Positions 3,234 through 20,019 of a stretch of DNA of 64,000 nt are shown piece after piece. This DNA comes from Macrostomum lignano (lineage: Eukaryota): the NCBI GenBank assembly GCA_002269645.1, contig NIVC01001021.1, positions 1 through 64,000 of the forward strand. Direction: 5' to 3'. Numbering within the stretch: position 1 is the first letter of the stretch; the number at the start of each line of letters is the position of its first letter. Below the pieces are notes generated by a model that saw only the letters and a list, made by a program, of their open reading frames with translations, was not told the DNA's origin and searched no databases. The position numbers and the translations under genes are program-made.

Positions 3234-3545
3234 AGTAGTAGGGCGAATTATGATACTGCCGCACTAGCACTGGCGAGATAGGCGGCAATGCAAATGTATA
3301 GGGAAAAATACACTGCGGAGATATGAGCCCTATCTCTGTGCATTGGGGACGGCTAAGCACTGCAGAGATATGAGCTCTATCTCTGTGCATTGGGGACGGC
3401 TAAGCACTGCAGAGATATGAGCTCTATCTCTGTGCATTGGGGACGGCTAAGCACTGCAGAGATATGAGCTCTATCTCTGTGCATTGGGGACGGCTAAGCA
3501 CTGCAGAGATATGAGCTCTATCTCTGTGCATTGGGGACGGCTAAG
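3234..3545 (+). repeat. Left terminal inverted repeat: 77 bp unique end plus 5 x 47 bp units
   Basis: Reverse complement of 19708-20019; unit CACTGCAGAGATATGAGCTCTATCTCTGTGCATTGGGGACGGCTAAG starts at 3311, 3358, 3405, 3452, 3499. Confidence 0.95.
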
Positions 3546-3950
3546 CACTGCGGAGATAGAGGCGATTCATGATACTGCCGCACTAGCGCTGGCGAGATAG
3601 GCGGCAAAAAGGATATAGGAAAAATACACTGCGGAGAGGATCCTATCTCTGTGCATTGGGAACGGCTAAACATTGCAGAGATAAGAGGGGTGGCCAATCT
3701 CTGTGCTCTGTGTTAGGGTAAGGTTATAAAGTTTTACAACTGCACAGAGGACGGCTGGTGTTGCTTACCTGGATAAGGGGACGGGGGGATACACTAATTA
3801 CAGCCAGTGGCCTCTATAACGGTAAAGTAATTATTACCTGAGCATGGCTGGATGTTCATATACGATATGATAAGGAGAGGGCATGCATGTACAAATTACT
3901 ATATAAGCAGCCACGCAAGTACAAATAAACAAATAGACAAAAACAAATTG

Positions 3951-3958
3951 TATAAAAG
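3951..3958 (+). promoter_or_regulatory. Candidate TATA box (TATAAAAG) for the 4009 ORF
   Basis: Canonical TATAAAAG 58 nt upstream of the ATG at 4009; motif only, no expression data. Confidence 0.45.
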
Positions 3959-4008
3959 GATTTTTAAAAACCTTACTACTTCTAAAAAACAACTCTTTCT
4001 CTTTCAAA

Positions 4009-5418
4009 ATGAAAACTTTTAAAAGTTGTCATAGAGACCTCTATGAGGTCTGTATAAGCTGCGAAGTGTGCCTGCTTGGAGGCGTGTCCCCAAGACACCA
4101 CGAGAATGAGAACTGTCTGGTCTCATGCTGGTTGGCATGCGACCAGTGCGGCACCGTCGAAGCTCTGCAGGAGGGAAAAATTCCAGCATATCATCGAGGA
4201 CACAAGATCGTCAGCGATGACAAGAAAAAGCAAGAAAGTAACCGCTGGAAAGTAATCCGCGCCATCAAAAAGAGCAACGAGAGAGAAAAGAAGAGCCAGC
4301 AGAAAAAGGGAGCCAGCAGGAGTCTGCTATCAGCTCACTTGAGTCAAGTAATTGACTCTACATTGAAGAGGATGAGGCCAAGCGGGTCTTCAGCAGCTGC
4401 AGAATTTGAAGTTGAGCTGTCTGCTGGAGTCGAGGCTGCTGGAGTCGAGGCTGCTGGAGTCGAGGCTGCTGGAGTCGAGGCCGCTGGAGTCGAGGCTGCT
4501 GGAGTCGAGGCTGCTGGAGTCGAGGCTGCTGCTGTCATAAACTTCATAGAGGAAGATGTCCTGGATCAGTTCCTCAGGGAATTCAACGCTGGTCAGCAGC
4601 AGCAGCAGCAGCAACCTGTCTCTTCGGTTCCGGTGATTGCTGGAAAACAACTTCATCTAATTGAAGACGACCACGAAATGGAAATCCTAGAAGAGGAGGG
4701 CAGCGACAATGAGTCGCATAATGCAATTGTGCCACCTGCAGCTCCAGCCGCCCCAGCTGCTCTGGCCGCCCCAGCTGCTCTGGCCGCCCCAGCTGCTCTG
4801 GCCGCCCCAGCTGCTCTGGCCGCCCCAGCTGCTCTGGCCGCCCCAGCTGCTCCAGCCGCCCCAGCTGCTCTGGCCGCCCCAGCTGCTCCAGCCGCCCCAG
4901 CTGCTCTGGCCGCCCCAGCTGCTCCAGCCGCCCCAGCTGCTCTGGCCGCCCCAGCTGCTCTGGCCGCCCCAGCTGCTCTGTCCGCCCCAGCTGCTCTGTC
5001 CGCCCCAGCTGCTCTGGCCGCCCCAGCTGCTCTGGCCGCCCCAGCTGCTCTGGCCGCCCCAGCTGCTCCAGCCGCCCCAGCTGCTCTGGCCGCCCCAGCT
5101 GCTCTGGCCGCCCCAGCTGCTCTGGCCGCCCCAGCTGCTCTGGCCGCCCCAGCTGCTCTGGCTGCCCCAGCTGCTCCAGCCGCCCCAGCTGCTCTGGCCG
5201 CCCCAGCTGCTCCAGCCGCCCCAGCTGCTCTGGCCGCCCCAGCTGCTCTGGCTGCCCCAGCTGCTCCAGCCGCCCCAGCTGCAGCCTCTACAATTCCAGC
5301 TTCTCAATCCGAAACTCCACCCGTGCCAGCTGGAGTTGCCTTCTTTCTGCCTCCTGTCGGCGGGGCTGGGTACGAGGTAACGATTTTCGAAAATCGTATT
5401 AGAATTGTGCCGCTGTGA
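4009..5418 (+). CDS. Polinton accessory protein, 469 aa: Cys/His-rich N-terminus, basic segment, AAGVE repeats, polyQ, acidic patch, ~30 Pro/Ala hexapeptide repeats
   Basis: ATG-initiated open frame inside the TIRs with non-repetitive N- and C-termini in frame across two repeat arrays (15 bp and 18 bp units); CxxC pairs CISC and CDQC; no family recognised. Confidence 0.75.
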   Translation: MKTFKSCHRDLYEVCISCEVCLLGGVSPRHHENENCLVSCWLACDQCGTVEALQEGKIPAYHRGHKIVSDDKKKQESNRWKVIRAIKKSNEREKKSQQKKGASRSLLSAHLSQVIDSTLKRMRPSGSSAAAEFEVELSAGVEAAGVEAAGVEAAGVEAAGVEAAGVEAAGVEAAAVINFIEEDVLDQFLREFNAGQQQQQQQPVSSVPVIAGKQLHLIEDDHEMEILEEEGSDNESHNAIVPPAAPAAPAALAAPAALAAPAALAAPAALAAPAALAAPAAPAAPAALAAPAAPAAPAALAAPAAPAAPAALAAPAALAAPAALSAPAALSAPAALAAPAALAAPAALAAPAAPAAPAALAAPAALAAPAALAAPAALAAPAALAAPAAPAAPAALAAPAAPAAPAALAAPAALAAPAAPAAPAAASTIPASQSETPPVPAGVAFFLPPVGGAGYEVTIFENRIRIVPL

Positions 5419-6301
5419 CTAAGCAATTTTTGTACTTTTTTGCTTTCTGTGTGGAGTGAGAAATCTACCCATTTATTGCAATTATTGCTAAAACTTTATT
5501 TCAACTAGCTTTTTAAAGTTGAAAGTAGGTACATTAATTAATGATTTGATCATCTCATAACTCTGTATTCGCTTCTAGGAATCTTGCTTATAAGTTTTCA
5601 GTTTTCATTTCCAAATTAGTTTTAAAAAAAGCTCGTAGCTCGTAGTGGCAACCAATATTTTTTTGGTATCCGAGGTAAAAAAAATTATTTGAAAAGTAGG
5701 TGAAACATTATACAGTTGAATTTAACAAATTAAAATCAACATAACATACTTTCAATAAATTGGTGATGGTTTCGTATGCTTGGTGCGATTGATTAGGTAT
5801 AATTTTCTTTCTACTGCTTTGACGCGGTGTTTCCTCATTCTTTAATTATTGAACTTTTCAGCTATATTTCTGCTTCTAAACTCTCGTCTGTATTTGTAAT
5901 TCATTGTTCCATGCATTGTTTATTGACTATGATTGCACCATGTGAATTCGATATTTTTTTAAAAAATATATATATAATGTCAGCATTTTTCCACTCGGTG
6001 ATTGGTTTGTTAATTAACTATTGGCTTCATTTTGCATTTTTTACCGATTGAGTCTGCGTAGGAGGCAAATAGAAACGAACTTTTACGAATAGGGATCAAT
6101 AGAATATGCATGCAGAGAGCTAGCTTAAGGGAGAACCAAAAAAATATAACCAGCATCTACTAGCTTGTAAGTGTGGATATTGTACCAGTATTGCAGCAAT
6201 AAAGACTTACGAAAAAAGATTTCAAATATTCACTCCCAGTTGCTTATGACACTCAGTTGCAGCCAGTAAACACTGTCAGCTTTTAACTGCTTGCCTTTTC
6301 T

Positions 6302-6698
6302 ATGGTTGAGCACTCCTGGATGGAGCAGGAGAATGACCACTCATGGATGGAGAATGACCACTCATGGATGGAGAATGACCACTCATGGATGGAGAATGAC
6401 CACTCATGGATGGAGAATGGCCACTCGTGGATGGAGGATGACCACTCGTGGATCGAGTATGACCACCCTTGGGTGGACCATGACGTCAGCAGCGAGTCAG
6501 CAGCCAGCAGCGAGTCGGCAGCCAGCAGCGAGTCGGCAGCCAGCAGCGAGTCGGCAGCCAGCAGCGAGTCAGCAGCCAGCAGCGAGTCAGCAGCCAGCAG
6601 CGAGTCAGCAGCCAGCAGCGAGTCAGCAGCCAGCAGCGAGTCAGCAGCCAGCAGCGAGTCAGCAGCCAACAGCGAGTCGGTGACTGATGCACACCAAG
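6302..6698 (+). CDS. Predicted exon 1 of the pPolB gene: (ENDHSWM)n and (SSESAA)n repeats
   Basis: ATG at 6302; ends at CAAG|GTAAGT (phase-1 donor, intron from 6699), which joins in frame to the AG acceptor at 6930/6931. Confidence 0.7.
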
Positions 6699-6930
6699 GT
6701 AAGTGCCTTTATTTATCCTTTTCAACTTACTTAAAAATTTTCTTATCAATGCGATGTATATTATGCAGTCTAAAATTTTAGTCCAAAGAATGGGAGAAGG
6801 GGAGATAAAAGACTTTATACCGGTAGGGTTGTACATGTATGCTTGGGTACAGACGTTTAGTTTAGTATCTTTGATATTTGAAACTATAGGCAGCAAAAAA
6901 CAAAAATATTATCCTAAAACCACAAACCAG

Positions 6931-9900
6931 GTTCAACAGTCAGCTTCAGCAGAGTTGCCCAAGCCTATGATCAATCACTGGAAATACTGAGGCTCAGATC
7001 GAGTCACCCAGACACGCTTCCGTCAGAATTTTTTGTCCAAGCTGGAGACAAAATTATTGAGGCAGTTCAGCAAAGAATTTCAAGACATCATTACAAAGTT
7101 CAGCTAAAGGCGAATATTCGAATGGTCCGAATAAGAGATGGGGAGATGCTTGCCGAAGAGGACAGATGGATAAGCTGTAAAATGCAGGCCCTAGACCTAG
7201 GTGGTGAAGCAGGCCGTTTAAACAACTGGTTGATTGAGCAGGAGCAGGAGTTGGAGAGGATCTGTAGTATGATTAATACGAACGGCAGTGGCTGGACAAT
7301 TAAACAAATTAATTTTCTAGACATCAACCTTGCCAGGTACAATCCAATTCGATTTCGCCAGGGCAGAGCCGTTAGATTCAATCTTCCTGCCAGTTTGAAG
7401 AACAAAAAGGCTGTTATCAATCCACCGAGCACAGGCAAAGACTGTTTCCTGTACGCCTGTCTCGCTGCACTGCACAGCGCCGATCCGAAAGTTCAGAAAT
7501 CGCCCAACAGAATATCCTCTTACGATGAATGGTTGCGTGAGCTGGACTTTGCAGAAATCTCCATGCCAGTGAGTGTCGCTGATATCGATCGCGTCGAGTC
7601 TAACAATCCAGGAATTTGCATTTCTGCGTTCTCTTGGCAGCAGGGCAGTGTGACTCTTCTCCGTCGCCGCAAGCATGAGTCAGATGACCGAAGACACCTC
7701 ATGCTTTTGCTAGTTAAAGACAGCTACGGATCGGAGCACTGGTGTGCAATTACTAATTTTGACAGGTTAATGAACAGTCGTAATGGTCCCGCCATGAGGA
7801 AGTGGTGCACGAAATGTTTAACATCATTTTATAGCAACGAGAGGCTTCAAGAGCACAGGAACGAATGCAGCATTACTGCAGAAAATCCTGTCAAAGAAAC
7901 GCTTCCAGTTCCAGGACAGAATGAAATAAAGTTCCGAAACTGTCAAAACACTGTCAGTCCACCATTCGTTGCCTATGCCGACCTGGAAGCCATTTTGCGA
8001 GCGAACACAGACCCTGCTAACCTGATCTCAAAGCATGAACCATGTGCAGCAGCTTTTCTTGCAGTGCCTCGTGAAGGCATGACAGGACCTCCGCTTAGGC
8101 CAGAAGGAGACATGTACAAGGTCTTTTGCAATGCGGACCCTGATGAGTGTATCCTTGGTTTTCTCAAATCTCTTGAAAGCCTGGCTCAGGATATATTTCA
8201 CTGGAACCAGAAGCATAGCCACCAGCCGGCTGACCGATCATCCGCGACCGTCATGGATGATTTCAATTCTGCTGAGGTATGTCACTACTGCAAGAAGAAC
8301 TTTAAAAGTTCTACAGATAAACATTTTGACCACGATCATTTAAATGGACAGTACAAAGGTGCAGCATGTCAAGAATGCAACCTGCGAGCACAGCTCCGAC
8401 GCCGGTTTCTGCCCCTGGTTTTTCACAACTTAGGCGGCTACGACCTTCATCTTCTACTTTCCACTGCGCTTGGGAGCATGAAAAATTGGAAACTTAGTGT
8501 TGTTCCGCAATCATCCGAGCGATACTTGTCACTAAGGGCGGAATTCCCTGTTGCAAGTTACGTAAAGAACGGAAAAGTTGTGCCAATCATGTTTACAATT
8601 CAGTTCATCGACTCGCTCTGCTTTTTGAAGGGAAGTTTGTCCAATTTGTTTGCTAATCTTCCCGAAGCTGAATGCAAGCTGACAATGCAAATGCTTGAGT
8701 CAAGACCACATCTTTCAAGAGAGCTACTTCGAAAAAAAGGGATTTTCCCATATGATTACCTCACAGGATTTGAGATTCTCGAGCAGTCGGTTTTGCCGCC
8801 TAAAGATGCTTTTTTTAATCGACTTTCCGATCGGGGAATTTCCGACGACGACTACAATAGAGCAAGAGCGGCATGGGCGGCATTTCAATGCAAAAGTTTG
8901 AAGGATTATATGCTCGCCTATCTTGAAATGGATGTAAGGCAGCTGGCTGACATTTTCGAGACATTCCGACAGGCCAGTCTGAAAGAGGACGGATTGGATC
9001 CGGTACACTACTTTACTACTCCTGGTTTGTCTTACGACTCAGCTCTAAAGTCGACTGGAGTGGTTCTAGAGCAGCTGACTGATGCTGACATGTATCATCT
9101 GTTTGAGAAGGGAATACGAGGAGGCATGTCCTTCATTAATGTGCATTGCGTCAAAGGTAATAATCCTAGCTTGCCAGGTTATGATGATCAGCAAGAGAGT
9201 GTAAGCCTCATGCCGATCGATATGAACAACTTGTATGGCTTTGCCCTGTCGCTTCCGCTTCCATGCAGGGAATTCAGGTGGGTACCGGAACAGGAAATCC
9301 AGTTCTGGGACTCCAATCGGTTTCTGTCACTCAATCCAGAAGCCGAGATCGCCTACCTTGTTCAACTCGATCTAGAATACCCAGCTGAGATTCACGATTC
9401 GACTCAGGAGTTACCGTTTGCACCTGAAAAATCAAAACCACAGCCAGATCAATTCTCGCCGTACATGGCCGAACTATGGAAAGAGATTGCTGAACAGCGA
9501 ACTGGCAATGCTGAAGCTAAGTTTCAAGCAACGGAGAAGCTTCTACTCACCTGTACCGACAAGGATTCTTACGTAGTTCACAGCACCGTTTTAAGATTTT
9601 ACCTGCAACACGGAATGCGGATCAAGTGCGTCAAAAAAATGATTTCGTTCAAGCAGGAAAATATTTTCGCGCCGTACATTGCCAGCAACAATGAAAAAAG
9701 AGCTTTGGCAACTTCCGAGTTTGCTAAGGATTTTTACAAATTGAAAAACAATTCTCTCTTTGGAAAAACTATGGAGAACGTTCGAAAAAGATGCGATGTT
9801 CGAATTTGCACTAACCAGACTCAAGCAGAAACTTGCGCCTCTCGACCAAACTGTGCCGCATTCTCGATTATCAATGAGTCGTTGAGCATTTTTCAGCTCA

Positions 9901-10580
9901 AAAAAGATAAAGTCACGCTTGACAAGGCCATTTTCGTTGGCCAGGCAGTTCTCGATCTCTCTAAGATGGCCATGTACAGCCTACTATATGACAGGCTCCG
10001 ACCGCTGTTCTGTCATTCAGACGGTTCCAGAGACATGATGCTTTGCGGAGGTGATACTGACTCATTTTTTCTAGCTTTCAAGAATCATGATTTAACATCG
10101 GAGGTAATCCCGAAGCTTAGAGAGGAAAAAATACTTGACACATCCAACTATTCTCGAGACCATCCGCATTTCTCTGAAGAGTTAAAAGGAAAGCTGGGCT
10201 GCGTTAAAGATGAATCTGCTGGTGGAATTTACCAGGAGTGGATTCTTTTGCGTCCAAAACTTTATTCGTTTCTCCCTGCCGAGAATTCGAGTGCAAAGAT
10301 CAAGAAAACTGCCAAAGGCGTGAAGCAGTCAGTAGTAAGACAGCAAATTTCGCATGCGAACTATGTCGACGCGTTCGAGTCCAAGCAAGAGCAGATGGTT
10401 GCCATGACAGCGATTGTTTCCAAGAAACACGAAATCTTCACGTCGGTCATGGAGAAAAGAAGCCTATCGGTGTGGGAGGATAAGCGAGTGTGGCTTAGCA
10501 GTAATCGAAGCCTGCCCTACGGACACTATGCGCTGACGCCCGCATCCCACGATCAGCTGAAGCGCATCCGACTGGTCTAG
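6931..10580 (+). CDS. pPolB: Protein-primed family B DNA polymerase with an endonuclease VII-like Zn/HNH insert (ORF track start 7122; frame is open back to 6918)
   Basis: ExoI YADLEA, ExoII FHNLGGYD, ExoIII YLEMD, motif A DMNNLYG, motif B KLKNNSLFGKT, motif C GDTDS; CHYC...HDHLNGQYKGAACQECN insert. Confidence 0.97.
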
Positions 10581-11162
10581 TGCGGGTGTTTAACAGACTG
10601 TTTAGTACTTTTTCTTGCTTTTAGAGTTGTTTAAATTGCCAAATTCTGTTTTAAATGTAGTGACTTGCATGTAGTAACTTTTACAAATTTGTATGCTTGG
10701 CTAATTGCGCTAGATTTAGCTGTCAATTTGTTTTTGCGGCGTGAAATATTGATATCAATTTAAGTTTTACTTTTTATAAAGCTGTGTGGCAAGTGCGCTC
10801 ATACAATATTAATTCATTTTTGTTTGCTTTGTGTACTACTTGTTTAAAATGTGTTTTTGGTTTTTATCTGACACAAATTGTTCCTGTAAATTCAATCAGC
10901 GTTTTAATCATATTTTCTCTATCACTTTTCTATTTCTCTTCTCTCGGTGCACATCGTTTGTTATAACGATGGTAGTATTGTTTACTTTCGGATTTGATAT
11001 GCGTTTTGCGATACTTTTGGTGATGGGCTAAATACGTTTTTGAAGTGTTCCATAGCTGTCTGCCTGGGAAAATGAATGTAAAGAATACCAAGTTTATCCT
11101 TTTATTCACTTTTCACTAATCATTGAAATATTTGCGGCAAATTGCTTGACTTGACTTTATTT

Positions 11163-11735
11163 TTATTCAATGGAAAGAACTACATTGAGTAGACGCATGC
11201 TATCGGTATGCAACTGATTCAAGGACCGAGCTCCACTGAGAACAAAAGAGCCGCTGTGAAAAAGCAGACATTTACAAAAGTTTAAATTGAAAATTAAAGC
11301 AGAAAAGGATTCTGGTTCATATTCGGCGTTTGGGATAATTGATTTTAACATTAATAAGGAAAGTGCGGAATGAACTGGGAGCTGTCCATGAGCAGTAATA
11401 GTTTTAATTCGAACACAAATTGTTTGATGAGGCAGCAGTTGAGCCGGCACTCTCCGATGCAGCATAGCCACGAAGCGACGGGCAGCCCTTTTGGCGTCTG
11501 CGTGGGTCTTGGCACCGCAGATGCTCAGTTGCCCAGTAGGGTAGAGTAGGAGAGTCACTCTGGGAATCCGCATCCGCTTGATGAGCACCCGGGGCCAGAC
11601 GGGCCGGTAGATCACATGAGCCATGCTGAGAGCCAGTTCCCGTAGAGGCAGCTGAGCGCCCCTGCCACCATCCAGTCTCAGATCTACTCCGCCAACCAGA
11701 TTGGTCACTCTTAGGGCTGTAGCTGGTGGGCTCAT
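11163..11735 (-). CDS. Divergent TATA-binding protein (TBP)-fold protein, ~190 aa from the first ATG
   Basis: Two TBP-like repeats by eye: TNLVG...YRPVWPRVLIKRMRIPRVTLLLYPTGQLSICGAK and EYEPESFSALIF...CLLFHSGSFVLSGAR, compared with TBP NIVS...[34 protein letters not shown] and YEPELFPGLIY...LLIFVSGKVVLTGAK. ORF track start 11774 is a TTG. Confidence 0.85.
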   Translation of the reverse strand: MSPPATALRVTNLVGGVDLRLDGGRGAQLPLRELALSMAHVIYRPVWPRVLIKRMRIPRVTLLLYPTGQLSICGAKTHADAKRAARRFVAMLHRRVPAQLLPHQTICVRIKTITAHGQLPVHSALSLLMLKSIIPNAEYEPESFSALIFNLNFCKCLLFHSGSFVLSGARSLNQLHTDSMRLLNVVLSIE

Positions 11736-12255
11736 TTCGATCGTCAACTTCTTCACCAAATCTGCTTCTGCCAACTTTACTGCTCGTGTGCCACGGACAC
11801 TGCTCGCTTCTTAAGTTGATGCAGAACTTTGGCTTAAGCCAACTGTAGTGCAGCAACGAATTTCTCACTGCACAGCCAGTATCTGAATCTTCAGTCGAGG
11901 GTGCTCCCAAATCTTCTAGGTTATAAACCTGTCTTCCAAGCAGCTCAGTCAGAAAAATCGACTTCCTTTCCCCATTTGACCAGATCGGACCACTGGCAAT
12001 GCTCAGAATGTCTTCCGCCAGTTCCATGTACGGACGGGTTCCATCATTCCACTTAAACTGGTGCAGACTCTTAGATAGCTGTCTGTAGTAAACTCGCATG
12101 TCAGGTGAGACTCTCTCCCATGGATACGGAGGTGCGTACACATGGTGAGCAATGTGGTAGCTCCCCGCTCTGATTTGAACAACTGCCAACTCCTTCACAA
12201 CAAATTTTTTGCTTGTGCTGTTGCACGGGAATCCTTGGAAGTCAATGTAGTTCAT
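11404..12255 (-). CDS. DnaQ/DEDD exonuclease-like Polinton accessory protein; its C-terminal ~110 aa overlap the TBP-like gene in another frame
   Basis: N-terminal IDFQGF...FVVKELAV, PPYPW, HQFKWNDG, NLEDLG and CAVRN resemble the RNase H-like/DnaQ-like ORFs found in invertebrate Polintons; family call is from pattern recall, not a search. Confidence 0.6.
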   Translation of the reverse strand: MNYIDFQGFPCNSTSKKFVVKELAVVQIRAGSYHIAHHVYAPPYPWERVSPDMRVYYRQLSKSLHQFKWNDGTRPYMELAEDILSIASGPIWSNGERKSIFLTELLGRQVYNLEDLGAPSTEDSDTGCAVRNSLLHYSWLKPKFCINLRSEQCPWHTSSKVGRSRFGEEVDDRNEPTSYSPKSDQSGWRSRSETGWWQGRSAASTGTGSQHGSCDLPARLAPGAHQADADSQSDSPTLPYWATEHLRCQDPRRRQKGCPSLRGYAASESAGSTAASSNNLCSN

Positions 12256-12355
12256 GATGCAGCTTTCCTTCGAAAATTTCGGAGTCAGTCCACCTTCTTA
12301 TATACTTTTCTGGCAGGCAATTTCAGCCAGGCTGTGTTGCTCCCGTACCCCTTGA

Positions 12356-12976
12356 CTAGACTCTCCTGTTCTTTCTCCAGTTCACCCCTCTGCTGGTTGC
12401 CATTTTCTTCTTAACTGATTTACCAACAGCGGAAAGCGGAACATTAAGCTTTTTCTGCTGCAGAAAATCGATGAACTCGTTCCACCCAACTGGTTCACGC
12501 TCACATGGCGAATCCCTCACTGTGTGCTGAATCAAGTCCAGTATGTTTGAGGAAGGGATTGACGTGCCTGCGATTTCCACCTCCCCGTTTTCACAAACTC
12601 GAATCAGCTCTGGATTGGTGGACAGGATCGTCCACAGACTGCGAGCCCTGGTTTTGAATTTCTGTGGCACCGACTTGCTGATCTTCTCTTCCCAGGTGCT
12701 TATCTGGGGTGTCTCTGTTTTCATCAACTTGGCTTCAGTATTGCGTGCTCCTTCTTTTCCAGCGTGCTTGCGCTTGGCCAGCAAACTTTGCATTGCACTT
12801 TGGTACATGGCGGTTTTCACATCTTCTGGACAATCCTCGGCATACAAGATGTCATCGCATTTCTTCTGAGCCTGCTTCAAGTCAGCTTCAGTGGTAGTCT
12901 CATTTGGCTTCAAATTCTGCATCAACATCTCATACTCTGCTTTAGGAATCAGAACCATTTCTGAAAATTTGTTCAT
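12356..12976 (-). CDS. Conserved Polinton hypothetical protein, 206 aa
   Basis: MVLIP N-terminus and GEVEIAGTSIPSSNILDL...PVGWNEF...NVPLSAVG C-terminal block, a pattern I recall from Polinton ORFs; co-directional in the gene cluster. Confidence 0.7.
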   Translation of the reverse strand: MNKFSEMVLIPKAEYEMLMQNLKPNETTTEADLKQAQKKCDDILYAEDCPEDVKTAMYQSAMQSLLAKRKHAGKEGARNTEAKLMKTETPQISTWEEKISKSVPQKFKTRARSLWTILSTNPELIRVCENGEVEIAGTSIPSSNILDLIQHTVRDSPCEREPVGWNEFIDFLQQKKLNVPLSAVGKSVKKKMATSRGVNWRKNRRV

Positions 12977-13280
12977 TTTGCTTCTTCTTCTTTACCAGCT
13001 TAAGCAGAATCGGGAGTATTTTGATGAAGCCAGCCTTCAACAAGTCTGTCTTTCTTCTTTTGTGAGTAATTTTTCGAATTATCTCTTTTGACTTTGCAAG
13101 AACAGCTTTTTCATCGAGCGAAAACGATAGATTGTTTTGTAAGAGATTATGGCAGGCCTCGACAAGAAAATAACGCACTTCTTTTGGACAATTTTTTATC
13201 AACAGCCGCTTGAAGCGCACGGTATATTTAGGTGACGCAAGAACCGCAAAAAGACTTGCATATGAATCAAGCACTTCCAT
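12942..13280 (-). CDS. Small conserved Polinton protein (~112 aa) with a C-terminal GF-hydrophobic amphipathic helix
   Basis: EACHNLLQNNL...KAGFIKILPILLKL resembles the common Polinton EC..N.L.GN...GGFL protein; ATG at 13280. Confidence 0.65.
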   Translation of the reverse strand: MEVLDSYASLFAVLASPKYTVRFKRLLIKNCPKEVRYFLVEACHNLLQNNLSFSLDEKAVLAKSKEIIRKITHKRRKTDLLKAGFIKILPILLKLVKKKKQNEQIFRNGSDS

Positions 13281-13321
13281 TGCGATGAAAACAATAGCTG
13301 ATAAAAACAAGCTTCACTTTC

Positions 13322-13968
13322 TTAAGCAAATACAAGATGGGGTCGCTGGTTGGGCAGAATTCTGGCCCGCACTCGCAGCTCATCGGGAGTTGATGGGTGA
13401 AAGTCTAGGAACAGGTAGGCTCCCCTGCCCTGCGCGGTCACGTGCTTGAACACTGACAGCAGAAAGCCGGGCTTCTCTGTAAAGCACTGCCTGCCCAGTG
13501 CTGCAATCTGCAGCTGGTCTCGGGGTTTTTCAAGATAGCTAAGTACATTACATTCAAGCTCATTGTTCGCGACTCTTTTCCCTTGAAAAATATATTCTGA
13601 GTCAGCATCACCAAAAAGCACGGCAAGTGATGTGCGATTCCTGTGAAAAAATTTCGCATTGAAGCAGAGTTTGAAGTTTCCTCTATTAAGTCATCGAAAA
13701 CAACCAGGTCATTGGGCCTAAGTGCTGCCTCGATGTTGGTGGGAAATCCCTGGCGCAGCTGCACACCTAGGCTGTTCAGTTCTGCATGGCCTGCCTGTGA
13801 GATCCCATAGTACCACAGAACTCTGCCAGGCTTCACATCAAACATGACGTCTCTGTACTGGATCAGGTGTTCGACAAAGGTTGTTTTTCCTGCATTGGTG
13901 GGCCCGCAGACAATCATGCAGCTTCCCTGCCTGAGGCGGATATCGTAGCAAACTTGCTTTTCTCCCAT
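13322..13968 (-). CDS. ATP: A32/FtsK-like packaging ATPase, split by a single -1 frameshift at ~13522-13525 as assembled
   Basis: Walker A GPTNAGKT, Walker B VVFDD, LTQN and ESRTMSLN in one frame; PRDQLQI...YLFLDFHP...ELRVR continues in the -1 frame. Adding one C to the AAAAACCCC run gives a 215 aa protein. Confidence 0.92.
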
Positions 13969-13991
13969 GTTTAATGCATAAATATTAGAAA

Positions 13992-14504
13992 TCACGGACA
14001 TCTTTTTCTTAAGTTGGCTTCAAACCTCTGTAAGATTCTATCATTCAAATGATTTTTCTCATTAGCATGCAAATGCTTCAAAATCCCCTCAAATGACCGA
14101 TTGAACAGAAACTTTTGATAAGCAAAATAGATGCAAAACATTCCGCATTTATTAGAGTTAGCACATTGAACTCTGTTTATATTGCTTCGGAGCCAAAAGC
14201 CAGTTGTTTTAATCTCTCGAAACAAATTATAAACCAAAGATAAAATTTCAGGTTCCCAGCCGAGGGAGTTGAACAACTCAATGCGATTTCCTTGCCCAAC
14301 ATAGCACACCACCCAGTGACCAAATGAGCCATTGTGCTGAAGTAGGACAAAAACAAACTTGTTTTCAAAGGAAATTGATGATCTAAATTTTCTTTTTACA
14401 TTCAAGGGCAGAGAATTTTTATAGCGCAAATGTAAAGTAACTATGAGAAATTTTTGGTAAGGCAAAAATTTTCTGGCGAGATTAAGTAGTTGAATTGCAT
14501 CCAT
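13992..14504 (-). CDS. PRO: Adenain-like (clan CE) cysteine protease
   Basis: GHWV (His), FNSLG (usual Asp position is Asn), RVQ (oxyanion Gln), KCGMFC (catalytic Cys). Confidence 0.9.
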   Translation of the reverse strand: MDAIQLLNLARKFLPYQKFLIVTLHLRYKNSLPLNVKRKFRSSISFENKFVFVLLQHNGSFGHWVVCYVGQGNRIELFNSLGWEPEILSLVYNLFREIKTTGFWLRSNINRVQCANSNKCGMFCIYFAYQKFLFNRSFEGILKHLHANEKNHLNDRILQRFEANLRKRCP

Positions 14505-14509
14505 GTCAA

Positions 14510-15793
14510 TTAAGAGGAATAGTCCAGCAAAAGCTCTCGGTGCTTGGTGACCTCAATCAGCGAGTCATACAGGCACATAGCAATCAGGGACACCGCTTCA
14601 TTCAGAGCCTGTTGGAAGCGAATCTCCAGCCGCAGGTTGCCCTCCTTCTGTCCGTACCACAGAGCCGCTCCCTCGGGTGTGAGATCGAATGCAAACACCG
14701 TGGTGTTGTTGGAGAAGAGCTGGTAGGGGATCCACGGGACCGAGTTTGTGTGGCTTGCAGATTGACAGCTTTTCAGGTAGTGCAAGTATTCTCTTACGAA
14801 GGAATTGTTTTCAGGTGTGAAGGCGCCGTGGCACACGGTTTCCCCACCTTTCTTTAGAGCCAATCGGCTAAGGTTGAAGCTCTGGAACTGTAACGGGCTC
14901 GCGTGATGATGACCGTTGAATGCTCGGTGGCTCACGAAGGCCAGCATGATGAACTTCGGCAATTTTCCATGAGTGAATCCTTCAATGTTTTTTGACTGAA
15001 TACCCTGGGGTAGGATGAAGTTCTGCATTTCAGTTCGCTCGATGGGATACAGTGCATTTTGGTTTGTCAGCCCCTGCTCATGGGCCAGGCTGATGTGGGG
15101 CATCACTTTGACTCGGCGAAGATGCAGAATGCTGTGAGAGATTTCCATTCGGTATGCCGCGTTGTTTGCATTCGGGGTTCTGATGGCAAAGGCCCCATCG
15201 CTGGGGACCAGTTTGATGTGCAGGTGCAGATTGCTTAGCAGAAACACTGGGCACTGGAAAACATCGCTGAAGAGCGGCCCCGCATACTCCATCCATTGGG
15301 ATTCCCTGTGGCTCTCCGTGTGCTCTTCAGCTGCCGAGTTCGGCTCCAGGAAGCCAGCAGGGTAAAGTTTTAGTTGCTGGGCATCGGATGAGCTCATTAG
15401 TGCTTTGAAGTACGCATGGTAGGGATAGAGCTGGTCTCCACCAGACACCACTCGCTGGTTAATGCTCACAATTACATCTGAGAAGGCTGTAGACAGAACA
15501 AAATTTTCTGGGTGCACGTCACTGTCTCTGCGCTCGGTGATGATGCCATCTCCATCTCGAACATCCTCCCTCAGCAAACCCCCATCCAGTCTCACAAGGC
15601 GGCAGCGAATATAAAGAAAAGAATTAAGCAGATCTGTATATTCATCGGCAGATTGGTGGCAGTCAAATTCAATGGGAGAGTTTGCAACAATGGAATTAAC
15701 TGGGTGAATATCAACATAAGTAGCTTTTTCAATGCAGGTTTGTAGAACGGGCGTCTTAAATAAATCAAGTCTGGGATTGAATCCGTAAGCCAT
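14510..15793 (-). CDS. MCP: Major capsid protein (double jelly-roll, Polinton PY/hexon-like)
   Basis: LDLFKTPVLQTCIE...PIEF...YTDLLNSFLY, GPLFSDVF and FAFDLTP motifs; 427 aa; adjacent to the protease and penton genes. Confidence 0.92.
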   Translation of the reverse strand: MAYGFNPRLDLFKTPVLQTCIEKATYVDIHPVNSIVANSPIEFDCHQSADEYTDLLNSFLYIRCRLVRLDGGLLREDVRDGDGIITERRDSDVHPENFVLSTAFSDVIVSINQRVVSGGDQLYPYHAYFKALMSSSDAQQLKLYPAGFLEPNSAAEEHTESHRESQWMEYAGPLFSDVFQCPVFLLSNLHLHIKLVPSDGAFAIRTPNANNAAYRMEISHSILHLRRVKVMPHISLAHEQGLTNQNALYPIERTEMQNFILPQGIQSKNIEGFTHGKLPKFIMLAFVSHRAFNGHHHASPLQFQSFNLSRLALKKGGETVCHGAFTPENNSFVREYLHYLKSCQSASHTNSVPWIPYQLFSNNTTVFAFDLTPEGAALWYGQKEGNLRLEIRFQQALNEAVSLIAMCLYDSLIEVTKHRELLLDYSS

Positions 15794-15795
15794 GT

Positions 15796-16173
15796 CTATG
15801 ACAGAGAGTCGAGCACGCGTTTCACAGTTTTCTTGCTGACTTTTTGCTTTCGCTTTCCTCCGCCTGCTCTATTCTTCTTTGCTTTCGTCTTCCTATTCTT
15901 AAGCTTTTTCCCACTAGCCTTGCTCGACCTCTTACTGCGATTTCCACCAGTTGCCTTTCGGGTGCCCTTCTTTTTCTTCAATCGTTTCGGACTTGCTTCA
16001 GTATTTCTTTTGCGCCTGACGTTGCTAAGCGTCGAGGCTGATGATGATGATATAGCCGCTGGCGGAGGCTGGTATGTCATGATCCCTGGGAAGCTCCCAC
16101 AGCCATAGAGTGCAGGCTTTTCGTGTCCTGTCCTCACCCCCGAATATTGCTGGATTAGCTGCTGGTAGTTCAT
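15796..16173 (-). CDS. Basic Lys/Arg-rich core-like protein (~125 aa)
   Basis: ATG overlaps the penton stop (ATGA at 16170-16173); LYGCG motif near the N-terminus followed by a very K/R-rich tail; stop lies 2 nt before the MCP ATG. Confidence 0.75.
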   Translation of the reverse strand: MNYQQLIQQYSGVRTGHEKPALYGCGSFPGIMTYQPPPAAISSSSASTLSNVRRKRNTEASPKRLKKKKGTRKATGGNRSKRSSKASGKKLKNRKTKAKKNRAGGGKRKQKVSKKTVKRVLDSLS

Positions 16174-16988
16174 TGAATGCGTTTCTCCTGAATTTGAACT
16201 GTAAGCAGAACAGGGCTGTGAGTCTGTGCAATCAGTGGGCAACCATAGATGTCCCGCAGCTGAACTCGAATGCTGTGAAGAAGACTGATTCGTTGAATCG
16301 GGAAGAATATTGTTTTCTTAAATATTTTTGTTTGATAGTTGCCCCATTCAATGCCAGCTTTCATTCCAACTGTTCTCAACAAGGAGCTCCAGTTGCAATT
16401 AGTTGACTCAACGATACTGCAGTGCACATTGATTAAGCTGGTGCGCGGGCAGCCAATGCAATGCTCGGATACGCGGCTCCCTGGCTGGATTTTCACAGCC
16501 TGGTTTCCAAATCCCAGCCAATGCAGAATTTTACTAGATGGAAGAAACAGCTCTGCTCTCGCAGTGTTGTTGTGCACCACAGTTCGTGAGTTGCGGATTT
16601 CGAACTTCATACCAAATTCCCTGTTGCCACTACGCCCCATCAGGCCGGACTCATCAGCCTCCATCTCAGACTCCCTGTCACTCATTGCATCAAAGAACAG
16701 CGAATCAGAGTTGGCCAGCAGCTCATTCAGGCGCTCCACCAGCTCCTCCACTCTAGCAAAGCGTCCGGGTTGAAGAACCAGGGCCTCATGCTCTCTTCCA
16801 TCTGAGACAGTGAAGCAGTAAGGCTCGTCAACATTGAACCATGCAGCAGGCAGATGGATTTCAGCCAGACCTGCCTCATAGTCCACATTTCGATCCAAGT
16901 AAATAGGTGAAGGCAGGTAAAAATTAAAGTCACTAGGAGTACCTTCAGCATGCTCACTGTTAATCAAAATAGTTCGCATTATAATCAT
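16170..16988 (-). CDS. mCP: Minor capsid protein (penton-like, Polinton PX)
   Basis: TPSDFNFYLPSPIYL...YEAGLAEIHLPAAWFNV N-terminus and VHCSIVE...LLRTV...IRVQLRD C-terminus. Confidence 0.88.
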   Translation of the reverse strand: MIIMRTILINSEHAEGTPSDFNFYLPSPIYLDRNVDYEAGLAEIHLPAAWFNVDEPYCFTVSDGREHEALVLQPGRFARVEELVERLNELLANSDSLFFDAMSDRESEMEADESGLMGRSGNREFGMKFEIRNSRTVVHNNTARAELFLPSSKILHWLGFGNQAVKIQPGSRVSEHCIGCPRTSLINVHCSIVESTNCNWSSLLRTVGMKAGIEWGNYQTKIFKKTIFFPIQRISLLHSIRVQLRDIYGCPLIAQTHSPVLLTVQIQEKRIQ

Positions 16989-17016
16989 AAACTACATGAT
17001 GAGGGCTGTGCCAAAG

Positions 17017-18087
17017 CTAAACCTTTCTTAAGTCTTTTTCATCCACCCAGCCAGTCGAGTCGTAGCCCGCCCATTTCACCAGATAGCGAATTTTTCCCTT
17101 CCGCTTCTCCGTTTTCAGGATCTTCTCAATCACATACAGCCGCTGTGAGTCCGGGACAGCCTGCAGCTCGTGCTCATGGAAGAGTCCTCGAATCTCTTGC
17201 CCCCGCATGTCTTTAATCTTGTACATGTAGGGATAATGTTTTGGGGCTCTGCTCACCACGGTGTACACTTCCTCACTCCAGCTCGCTTTGTATCCCTTTT
17301 TGAATATCCGTGGAGCATTGGAAATTCTCACTGACTGGTTTTCAGCGAACTTAGGCTTCTTTAATTTTTCTAGAGTCTCGACTGCTTTTCCATCGTACAG
17401 GTTCATCCACACTTCAGATTCATTCTCTTTGCAGACACTAGTGGGTGCCATTTTGATGCTTCTGTGGTAGGTATTGTTGTAGGATTTTACCAGCTTAGGC
17501 AGCACATCAAGCCAGTGCAGTGTGCTCTTGTAGGTGAAGTAGCGCCACATTCTACTTTTCAGAGTTCGATTCCATCGCTCAATGACAGCTGCCTTCTGCT
17601 CGCTGTTAGTTGGGAAAGCCAGAATCCCTCTGTCAATGCAGTATTGACGGAAAGTGGAGTTGATAAATTCCTTCCCCTGATCTGTGCGAACTGTGCGTGG
17701 CTGGCGCTTTGAACTTCTCAGTATGCTCTCGAATGCTGACTTCACTTCTGCAGCAGATTTATTTTTCAGTGCCTTGGCCCAAGCACATTTTGAGAGCACG
17801 TCAATGCATGTGAGAATATATTTGTAGCCTTTATTATGCTTTGCGAATGGAATCATTTCCACTAAGTCAAGTTCCCACTGATCATCGATTGCGCGCACTA
17901 TGATTGGGGCCCTTGGATATCGCCTCCTAGCTGGCTTGTGCAGAGTGTGCACTGGCTGCTCGCTGAGCCACTGCTCAATGCTCTTTGCAGATATTCGATC
18001 ACCTCTTTGCCTCACTTCATGCAGCAACTTTGAGGCACAAGAAAAACTAGCCGGTTGCTCAGGTTTCAAATAAATTTTCTCCATCAT
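17017..18087 (-). CDS. INT: Retroviral-like (RVE) integrase with a C-terminal chromodomain
   Basis: DDE triad in WELDL, RTDQGKEF and VIERWNRTLK; YVIEKIL...RYLVKWAGYD...WV chromodomain. Confidence 0.96.
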   Translation of the reverse strand: MMEKIYLKPEQPASFSCASKLLHEVRQRGDRISAKSIEQWLSEQPVHTLHKPARRRYPRAPIIVRAIDDQWELDLVEMIPFAKHNKGYKYILTCIDVLSKCAWAKALKNKSAAEVKSAFESILRSSKRQPRTVRTDQGKEFINSTFRQYCIDRGILAFPTNSEQKAAVIERWNRTLKSRMWRYFTYKSTLHWLDVLPKLVKSYNNTYHRSIKMAPTSVCKENESEVWMNLYDGKAVETLEKLKKPKFAENQSVRISNAPRIFKKGYKASWSEEVYTVVSRAPKHYPYMYKIKDMRGQEIRGLFHEHELQAVPDSQRLYVIEKILKTEKRKGKIRYLVKWAGYDSTGWVDEKDLRKV

Positions 18088-18407
18088 GGGTTTATCAAGA
18101 TACGTGCCTATCCACCTGCTCTAGCTGTACAGTATTTTTTCTTAAGTAGAAATTTATATTCCAATTAAATGATAGAGAAACGAGTGGCAAATTAATTTAT
18201 TACTGTCAGATTGAAACCTCTAACATCGTAACAGTCGGTGTATTTTCCGAAAGCAAACAATCCATAAAAACGAACACTAAAACACTCGCACACCAGCATT
18301 TCAGAAATAGCAGAGATAAAAAACAGCATAGTGCCGTCAGGCTGGATAATCATGTGCAAGCTAAAAGTAATTTAGTTAGTCCAATGCATTCAAAGCATTC
18401 TAGCTGT

Positions 18408-19184
18408 TCAGTTATCAAAGCGAACATTGGGCTGCAGCCTCATCGCGTCCTGCCGACGAAGTTGAAATGGCAGCTTTCGCTTCCTGCTGCTGCTGCTCAC
18501 CGTCGAAGCCGCTGCATGCGCCCTGAACTGATACCACACCGGATCTTCCTCAAGGTTGGTGTCCCGCTGCGGAAGCAGTCCAGCATCAGAATCAACCGAA
18601 GGTATCGGTGTGGATGTGATTGGCTCAGTCACAATGCGCGGCCTTGTGGGCGAGCTAACGTCCTCGTCATCAGCATGATCTCCGCCCTCATCAGTCTCCA
18701 TTATGGGCTTCGTGTCCTGGTCAGCCTCCAACTTGAGCTTCTTGTCCTCTTCCTCCTCTTCCTCATCAGACTCCAGCTCGTACTGCATTGTGTTCCTCAA
18801 GGGAGCCACCAGCTGACCGTCGATCCAGGAGGCGATTTTCCAGAGCTTCTGCCACAGCGGCGGAGTCAGTGGTACGGCGTTTCGTCTCAAAAACTCCTCG
18901 CAGCAATCTTCCGGCAGCCGTTTGAGCCAAATGATGCCGCCTTTGACTTCCACAAACTTATCGAAGCCGAGTTTCACGACCTTGGGCTCGTTGTTGCGTG
19001 CAGAAATCACAAGTGAGCGTTTCACCTCCTTCAATTTCTTCCATTGGTGAACATTCAGGTTGAATCCTGGGACGCCTGGCTTCAGACTTGCCGTGCTGCC
19101 GTGTCGGTAAAATTTGCGAATAGCGATAAATTTTTGTCCTTCAAACTCCTGGACTTGTGCCTTATAGCCTTCACAGATGTCCAT
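18408..19184 (-). CDS. Protein with tandem PC4 (Sub1)-like ssDNA-binding domains, an acidic linker and a basic C-terminus
   Basis: VQEFEGQKFIAIRKFY...KPGVPGFNLNVHQWKKLKE aligns by eye with PC4 VREFKGKVLIDIREYW...KPGRKGISLNPEQWSQLKE; a second degenerate copy ends VPLTPPLWQKL. Confidence 0.8.
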   Translation of the reverse strand: MDICEGYKAQVQEFEGQKFIAIRKFYRHGSTASLKPGVPGFNLNVHQWKKLKEVKRSLVISARNNEPKVVKLGFDKFVEVKGGIIWLKRLPEDCCEEFLRRNAVPLTPPLWQKLWKIASWIDGQLVAPLRNTMQYELESDEEEEEEDKKLKLEADQDTKPIMETDEGGDHADDEDVSSPTRPRIVTEPITSTPIPSVDSDAGLLPQRDTNLEEDPVWYQFRAHAAASTVSSSSRKRKLPFQLRRQDAMRLQPNVRFDN

Positions 19185-19391
19185 TTTCCTTTCGCAATTG
19201 AAAACTCACAAAAGTTAAAAGCTGAGGAAAATTTCGGATGAAATTTTGGATTTGAAAAATTGAGAATTCTTTCTTGTCAATTTCGGGGCTTATATACCCT
19301 CGACCGAACCACCCCAAACCACCCATCCCACTCCGGGCTCTGTGATTGGCTCTTTCGCAAACATTATTTCCAATTACATAGATTAACATCT

Positions 19392-19680
19392 TATCTCTGC
19401 AGTGTTAACCACCCCCAATGCAAAGAGATAGGCCGCCTCTCCTCCTATCTCTGCAGTGTTAACCACCCCCAATGCAAAGAGATAGGCCGCCTCTCCTCCT
19501 ATCTCTGCAGTGTTAACCACCCCCAATGCAAAGAGATAGGCCGCCTCTCCTCCTATCTCTGCAGTGTTAACCACCCCCAATGCAAAGAGATAGGCCGCCT
19601 CTCCTCCTATCTCTGCAGTGTTAACCATCTCCAGTGTAAAGAAATAGGCCGCCTCTTCTCCTATCACTCCTGTGTTAAGC
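19392..19680. repeat. Subterminal 54 bp repeat (~5 copies), a diverged relative of the 47 bp TIR unit
   Basis: TATCTCTGCAGTGTTAACCACCCCCAATGCAAAGAGATAGGCCGCCTCTCCTCC at 19392, 19446, 19500, 19554, 19608. Confidence 0.9.
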
Positions 19681-19707
19681 AGAGATAGAGCTCATATCTC
19701 TGCAGTG

Positions 19708-20019
19708 CTTAGCCGTCCCCAATGCACAGAGATAGAGCTCATATCTCTGCAGTGCTTAGCCGTCCCCAATGCACAGAGATAGAGCTCATATCTCTGCAGT
19801 GCTTAGCCGTCCCCAATGCACAGAGATAGAGCTCATATCTCTGCAGTGCTTAGCCGTCCCCAATGCACAGAGATAGAGCTCATATCTCTGCAGTGCTTAG
19901 CCGTCCCCAATGCACAGAGATAGGGCTCATATCTCCGCAGTGTATTTTTCCCTATACATTTGCATTGCCGCCTATCTCGCCAGTGCTAGTGCGGCAGTAT
20001 CATAATTCGCCCTACTACT
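19708..20019 (-). repeat. Right terminal inverted repeat
   Basis: Reverse complement of 3234-3545, including the same variant outermost 47 bp unit. Confidence 0.95.

Follow-up and report, generated by a model that had tools for sequence, protein, structure and literature searches.

The DNA polymerase of a Polinton/Maverick element in the flatworm Macrostomum lignano is probably encoded by a split gene, from which cis-splicing would yield one polypeptide composed of a repeat-built leader, a terminal-protein (TP) domain, a vOTU protease domain, an endonuclease VII-like (EndoVII) stretch and a protein-primed family B polymerase (pPolB). The element lies in a stretch of 64,000 nucleotides (nt) of contig NIVC01001021.1 (assembly GCA_002269645.1, positions 1 to 64,000), here called the window, and the parts of the polymerase gene are all on its forward strand. 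A leader exon at 6302..6698 opens with an ATG at 6302 and comprises 397 nt, i.e. 132 codons plus 1 nt, ending in phase 1; the predicted phase-1 GT-AG intron at 6699..6930 (232 nt, 32% GC) contains stops in all three frames, and exon 2 occupies 6931..10580 (3650 nt). The donor reads CAAG/GTAAGT at 6698/6699 and the acceptor AAACCAG/G at 6930/6931, with an alternative phase-1 acceptor CAG at 6937..6939, 9 nt 3' of the main one, that would also keep the frame. By arithmetic the joined exons (397 + 3650 nt) amount to 1348 codons. Apart from the alternative acceptor, these coordinates and phases, the 232-nt intron and the 1348-residue product had been put forward in an initial annotation of the window, and all hold on recomputation. 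The splice from 6698 to 6931 is a prediction from sequence, with the features expected of a spliceosomal intron: GT-AG ends that fit the host consensus (the donor motif GT[G/A]AG is given for the host in PMC8629364), compatible phase and free variation in length. The acceptor had also been likened to those of the host, and the single host acceptor inspected, in an XPB-like gene, is likewise A-rich and free of a pyrimidine tract. The sequence AGGTAAGT occurs once on the forward strand and three times on the reverse strand of the window. The two repeats originally described in the leader exon, at about seven and about ten units, resolve into a 21-nt unit present 7.5 times (6328..6484; 6-8 units among copies), encoding an acidic Trp peptide of the form W-x-E-x-D, and an 18-nt unit present 10.7 times (6487..6678), encoding a Ser/Glu/Ala linker, the commonest unit variant of which is synonymous in the leader frame. 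The product of the leader exon has a net charge of -30, with 39 Ser, 8 Trp and neither Lys nor Arg. A further GTAAGT at 6167-6172 and several CAG trinucleotides at about 6258-6279 on the same strand, upstream of the ATG at 6302, may form an intron in the 5' untranslated region or a trans-splice acceptor.

A difficulty for any unspliced polymerase is the position of its start codon. The polymerase frame is open from 6918, and its first ATG (7122) is codon 69, whereas homology to relatives already begins 55 codons 5' of that ATG. When the 300 residues that follow the acceptor are modelled with AlphaFold (44-row alignment, mean pLDDT 91.8), residues 3-136 adopt the little-finger/PAD fold of Y-family polymerases, with the best matches to Pol eta/iota/IV (Z 8.3, root-mean-square deviation 3.1, 108 residues aligned), and this defines the TP domain at 6939..7340. 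Residues 150-277 match OTU proteases (Z 6.0-6.7), defining the vOTU domain at 7380..7763, in which the Cys at 7443-7445 is invariant and the His at 7737-7739 nearly so across the 44 alignment rows; the fold-match scores for both domains are moderate, but many rows agree. A putative priming Ser at 7287-7289 is invariant in all eight polymerase lineages first compared (see below) and occupies the expected position, and both this position and the TP-vOTU layout at the front of pPolB have been described for Polintons (bioRxiv 2024.03.18.585575, section 6). Further downstream follow the endonuclease VII-like stretch at 8271..8387 (PF02945, E 1e-5) and pPolB at 8415..9785 (PF03175, E 2.4e-12). The ATG at 7122 corresponds to residue 64 of the model and falls within the third TP strand, while the TP sheet begins at residue 3; in the model, initiation at 7122 would remove two strands, one helix and most of the third strand. 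Because this ATG lies inside the TP fold, coding must start approximately at the acceptor, where no ATG exists, and therefore the start codon has to come from upstream. Modelling for a terminal-protein fold, which the initial annotation had recommended for the N-terminal 300 residues, recovered such a fold with confidence in the 300 residues past the acceptor, starting three residues beyond it. The structure model and the conservation over nine lineages also support the view of that annotation that the repeat peptide precedes the terminal protein.

This conservation was assessed by a genome search with one relative, which gave 50 matches; 19, then 14, then 3 stretches were fetched, and nine polymerase lineages were evaluable (the locus L116 being assessed as L129), the loci set aside as broken, truncated or unmatched in motif being L034, L039 and L046 (of 19) and L119, L121-L124 and L127 (of 14), with L079 and L082 (of 20), L137 (of 12) and L140-L142 also not evaluable. 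The first eight lineages are 34-69% identical over 250 amino acids, and all eight possess a phase-1 YAG 26-32 nt 5' of a conserved AH motif. The YAGs found 21-41 nt 5' of this motif are distributed 0/9/0 by phase, and the chance product for the seven lineages other than that of the window is 1e-7 to 1e-8, a value that is indicative only. The ninth lineage, fetched later, has a single YAG in the range, in phase 1 and at 20 nt, together with a phase-1 donor. Across the acceptor the GC fraction steps up in all eight lineages from 0.18-0.37 to 0.43-0.53. The residue read through the acceptor is Gly in most lineages and Asp in two, and since it differs, the constraint appears to act on the AG and not on the amino acid. 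Seven of the eight carry upstream a phase-1 donor together with an open frame that starts at an ATG and runs for 16-132 codons, a count for which one donor pattern was chosen post hoc; two lineages have, in addition, a frame of 30 codons in phase 0. In the sister family of L037 the intron ranges from 359 to 1143 nt in length classes of 7/4/7 and holds a tandem repeat of its own, with its ends constant and the leader frame intact in 18 of 20 loci. The automatic gene models that are public for this family, whether RNA-based or ab initio, join the same two exons. In a tree the nine lineages and two Logan proteins form one clade (98/98), within which the window lineage branches first (85/90 for the remainder, not firm), and the Logan protein P0002 has the same Ala-Gly spot ahead of the AH motif. 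Since the site is common to the nine lineages, the intron would predate the split of these polymerases. Word-index protein searches recovered three relatives (shorter forms gave none and longer forms nothing new); nine ORFs of the window had no exact match in the protein collection, which thus offered no public model for the family of the window element itself.

At closer range, 54 matches to the region 6100-7400 were found in the 764-Mb genome, at least 30 of them full-length copies with 95-100% identity, so that the window Polinton belongs, by this measure, to a young multi-copy family. In each of the 30 copies both splice sites are preserved, and the leader, 361-439 nt long, is in phase 1 in 29 and stop-free in 26; three copies have deletions of 16-17 nt inside the intron, and the same copies also carry leader stops. 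The comparison of splice sites and frame in sister copies that had been suggested at the outset thus came out in favor of the intron, but it is a weak test on its own because many copies are identical (nine of them across 1301 nt) and changes by 21- or 18-nt units preserve the frame automatically.

Across the lineages the leader is variable. Long leaders are found in the window lineage and in the clade L115/L031/L033/L045, and the clade L035/L036/L037/L040 (96/95) has leaders of 16-54 codons with no Trp repeats. The long leaders share a common plan built from different DNA units, namely an acidic block followed by a linker. The acidic block is typified by a large hydrophobic residue (aromatic or Leu) before x-E-S/T/N-D/E; its unit is 21 nt in the window and 24 nt in L031, with up to 42 units in L032, is degenerate in L033 and L115, and takes a Leu-based version in L129/L130. 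The linkers are of the Ser/Ala, Ser/Thr or Gly/Ser types in 18- or 27-nt units. All leader repeat units (18, 21, 24 and 27 nt) are multiples of three, as against 6 of 24 host satellite periods, and common variants of the 18-, 24- and 27-nt units are synonymous in the leader frame. The leader peptide matched no Pfam family and no Atlas entry, and no Trp-acidic repeat stood out in the N-terminal ends of 120 aligned relatives (their last 110 residues). The left arm of L045 is that of L031 (96-98% nucleotide identity) until about 90 nt into the intron, after which the polymerases are only 50% identical, a junction seen on two contigs that are possibly one locus twice. A crossover inside the intron has thus set one leader on two different polymerases. 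Among 120 distant relatives with an aligned TP start (including 16 models of M. lignano), 73 have at least 40 residues ahead of it and 39 have C2H2 fingers; because relatives carry various modules there in one open frame, the slot before TP is variable by nature, and in the present clade it appears to have become an exon.

Several observations weigh against the split-gene reading. The chief one, and the ground for considering regulated retention, is that the junction is missing from sequencing contigs. For 6200-8200 no run is annotated as RNA. Four runs from four studies, available as contigs only and with their RNA status guessed, were compared over 6630-19380, and none of them has a joint of 6698 to 6931. 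Contigs of X10 (6639-10654) and X19 (6640-11220) cross the intron unspliced and one of X12 covers it from 6700, X14 being too patchy to judge. Contig cover is even across the whole element, a pattern that DNA or read-through from host introns would produce, and only in X10 does it fall between the converging genes. Because rare forms drop out of contigs, these data demonstrate an unspliced form but do not show that a spliced one is lacking. In addition, a leader stop or frameshift occurs in 4 of the 30 sister copies; L033, a single copy, has 108 open codons with no ATG, and in the ninth lineage an ATG lies in the leader frame at only 3 of 11 loci and is wanting at the other 8, which leaves the start unexplained in both cases; the 21-nt unit shows no synonymous excess, with 3/10 each for the leader frame and the +1 frame; and the range of positions and one donor pattern were set after the data had been viewed, on lineages that are kin. 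The spliceosomal intron of the initial annotation is supported by the fold model and the nine-lineage conservation, while the expected RNA junction did not appear in the contigs.

These contigs bear on the possibility that the intron is real and acts as a regulated gate, most transcripts keeping it, to give a 159-codon repeat peptide ending at 6781 or to be decayed, and only some cells splicing it. The unspliced contigs of X10 and X19 and the stop that a retained intron would supply 27 codons in are both in accord with such a gate, for which the P element offers a precedent (PMC7776569). However, even cover in both gene directions in runs of guessed RNA status also fits DNA or host-intron read-through, and the read-through tails differ among lineages instead of being conserved; regulated retention is hence possible, if on the unlikely side. 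The same unspliced contigs, in a satellite-rich genome, could alternatively mean that there is no intron at all. Translation of the polymerase would then begin either at the ATG at 7122 or near 6930 at some non-ATG codon, and the ORF upstream would be satellite DNA or a small gene in its own right. Eight lineages do share an invariant Met at 7122, but this Met lies in the middle of a strand of the TP fold and also occurs in relatives that have long N-termini and no intron, and the conserved phase-1 AG, the GC step and the donors would be left unexplained, which makes this account highly improbable. About as improbable, or slightly more so, is the addition of a flatworm spliced leader at the acceptor, the upstream repeats being an outron. 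Around 30% of genes are reported to be trans-spliced, with a leader that ends in ATG (PMC8629364), and two lineages have no ATG in the repeat exon, and in L031, L033 and L045 a phase-0 TTTCAG at that exon would put the ATG of the spliced leader in frame. At the phase-1 acceptor itself this ATG would be out of frame and leave TP truncated; moreover, the cis donor is kept upstream in all nine lineages, and no leader-like loose end lies near 6931 among the loose ends listed. Trans-splicing at the upstream phase-0 acceptors may nonetheless explain the ATG-less leaders. The TTTCAG of these three lineages stands at the start of the repeat exon, and L031/L045 have upstream a candidate ATG mini-exon of 14 codons with a phase-0 donor; from such sequences, a second intron or trans-splicing is possible in some lineages.

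Similar weighing applies to what the leader might do. It could be an acidic activation domain, a role already raised in the initial annotation, which in an extended form of that idea would be tethered to the genome ends via TP and drive the promoters of the element together with its TBP-like and PC4-like proteins. The leader is acidic and aromatic, a composition typical of activation domains, and the element does encode both of these proteins. However, one subtype has Leu in place of Trp, and the best-kept feature is a Ser-Glu-Ser/Thr-acid pattern. Docking sites phosphorylated by CK2, or a chaperone that binds basic proteins through its acidity, would be compatible with this pattern too. A link of the Trp leader to the TBP-like gene was rejected, as the gene is present in lineages both with and without Trp leaders. 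The activation-domain role is on balance doubtful, and by analogy the leader may alternatively serve in phospho-dependent docking, as an acidic chaperone or as a tolerated spacer. The Trp form is not essential, because four lineages lack it. If the split-gene model holds, there is about an even chance that the leader, being flexible, acidic and probably phosphorylated, tethers host nuclear proteins in a multivalent manner and is helpful without being essential.

Under the favored split-gene model, host RNA polymerase II would transcribe the polymerase gene in the nucleus and the host spliceosome would remove an old phase-1 intron at the N-terminal edge of the TP domain. The start codon would thereby come from the upstream exon, together with a leader that is variable and unstructured, consisting in the window of acidic Trp repeats and then a Ser/Ala linker. 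Cleavage between TP and vOTU has been proposed for this class of proteins (bioRxiv 2024.03.18.585575 / PMC11161782); if vOTU makes this cut here, the translated leader would stay on the TP bound covalently to each genome end. It would fill the slot taken by C2H2 fingers or other modules in many intronless relatives, and the intron could let it change in length, change its repeat unit and be exchanged between polymerases. A more speculative extension, to which we give little credence at present, is that the intron serves this clade as a hinge as well as a control gate, such that splicing sets which cells replicate the element and recombination in the intron swaps repeat-built leaders among divergent polymerases; the genome-end protein would then bear an exchangeable docking module of tunable length, made of acidic, phosphorylatable repeats joined to a flexible linker, for host transcription, chromatin or DNA-repair factors.

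The element itself extends over 16.8 kb (3234..20019) between terminal inverted repeats (TIRs) of 325 nt that are 100% identical, the left one (3234..3558, forward strand) starting with AGT repeats and the right one (19695..20019) being on the reverse strand. Its assignment to the Polintons follows from these and from Pfam matches to pPolB, an rve integrase with a chromodomain (17017-18087, E 3.2e-13) and an adenovirus-like maturation protease (Peptidase_C5, E 7.2e-5); the best viral fold match is an adintovirus protein (E 1e-19). Pfam further recovered endonuclease VII, PC4-like and TBP-like genes and gave no match for ORFs 13438-14001, 14510-15793 and 16170-16988. The first of these has a Walker A motif, and the capsid labels of ORFs in the window are our assumption from size and gene order, a packaging ATPase and major and minor capsid proteins being candidate products. 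A small Lys/Arg-rich ORF on the reverse strand (15796-16173), between putative capsid genes, resembles a DNA-condensing core protein by composition only. The TBP-like gene (11163-11735, reverse strand; PF00352, E 1e-24) was found in each Polinton lineage checked, is 75-89% identical among them and about 38% identical to other genomic TBP-like loci, and overlaps ORF 11404-12255 by about 330 nt in a different frame. A 54-nt repeat at 19383-19691 (reverse strand), adjoining the right TIR, translates to an 18-residue repeat peptide with no ATG. The right-arm genes (L090-L097 compared with window 11163-19184) are mostly 63-99% identical in a mosaic manner among lineages whose polymerases are 34-69% identical, a pattern that at sequence level is one of modular recombination. 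On the left arm, ORF 4009-5418 (forward strand) has an N-terminus rich in Cys and His, contains repeats of 15 and 18 nt and is hydrophobic and conserved over a stretch at its C-terminus; its counterpart precedes the polymerase in all eight lineages, with its own repeat in each and a type that tracks the leader type. Splicing of this ORF into the polymerase was considered and rejected, the best donor being in phase 0 with no matching in-frame acceptor in the window. The automatic models P0006 and P0162 of a sister family, which join an upstream ORF to the polymerase, look unreliable.

A 6-bp target-site duplication flanks three of the five copies in which both ends were inspected (C1101, C992 and C530) and is missing from C1063 and from the window copy, with flanks derived from different insertions. 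The right flank of the window copy is that of an insertion in an intron of the XPB-like host gene (C530), about 20 nt below its donor, a site for which filled and empty alleles both exist (the empty ones on C415 and C2252). On the left, the window copy has the flank of another insertion (C100). The window copy thus has no duplication because its two flanks come from different insertions, and it is most likely a chimeric assembly join through the repeat, which has no effect on the intron finding.

In the conserved intron, the sequence gives direct evidence that a Polinton is expressed in the nucleus and depends on the spliceosome. The splice junction would be a clean RNA marker of true element expression in a tractable animal where the copies otherwise drown in read-through, and by way of the variable leader carried by the terminal protein it should be possible to test which host factors meet the genome ends. 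Because Polinton core genes are treated as intronless, ORF-based annotation would start such a polymerase inside its priming domain and may call open copies defective. The core genes of vertebrate and nematode Mavericks have been reported as intronless (PMC8097293; 10.1101/2022.07.12.499685), a descriptive trait that on comparative evidence probably does not extend to the polymerase gene of the present elements. In a literature search of limited journal coverage, neither an intron in the polymerase of any Polinton nor the presence of Polintons in M. lignano was found to be described; PMC11131425, PMC12220804 and 10.1101/2023.08.22.554363 yielded nothing relevant, and the passages of the adintovirus paper (PMC8502044) present TBP-like genes in a figure legend and no word containing 'splic'.

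In its core the gene agrees with the pPolB of Polinton/Maverick elements (adintoviruses), which show the same TP fold, a putative priming Ser located after helix 2 and ahead of the last strand, the vOTU Cys and His, pPolB, TIRs, integrase and protease (bioRxiv 2024.03.18.585575 / PMC11161782). It differs from other Mavericks in the conserved intron before TP and in having a spliced repeat exon in place of in-frame C2H2 fingers (39 of the 120 relatives); what is particular here is the repeat-built, exchangeable leader. Spliceosomal introns also occur as introners in Maverick-Polinton-like elements of dinoflagellates (10.1101/2025.03.18.643946); however, those are recent mobile insertions, whereas in M. 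lignano lineages that are 34-69% identical the intron always occupies a single position, and its sequence is not conserved. The third intron of the P element likewise makes a transposon enzyme depend on host splicing, with regulated retention proven there and a possibility here (PMC7776569). The tie of the polymerase to host splicing drawn in the initial annotation is supported comparatively, but it is not unprecedented: in the E2B region of adenoviruses, pol and pTP likewise obtain their start codon from an upstream exon. In HAdV-A31 each of the two is tabulated as joined to the same 9-nt upstream exon (PMC2794291). The adenoviral leader is thus of three codons, lies several kb upstream and is common to two proteins, whereas that of the M. 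lignano elements would contribute 16-400 codons from 180-1140 nt upstream of a fused TP-vOTU-polymerase.

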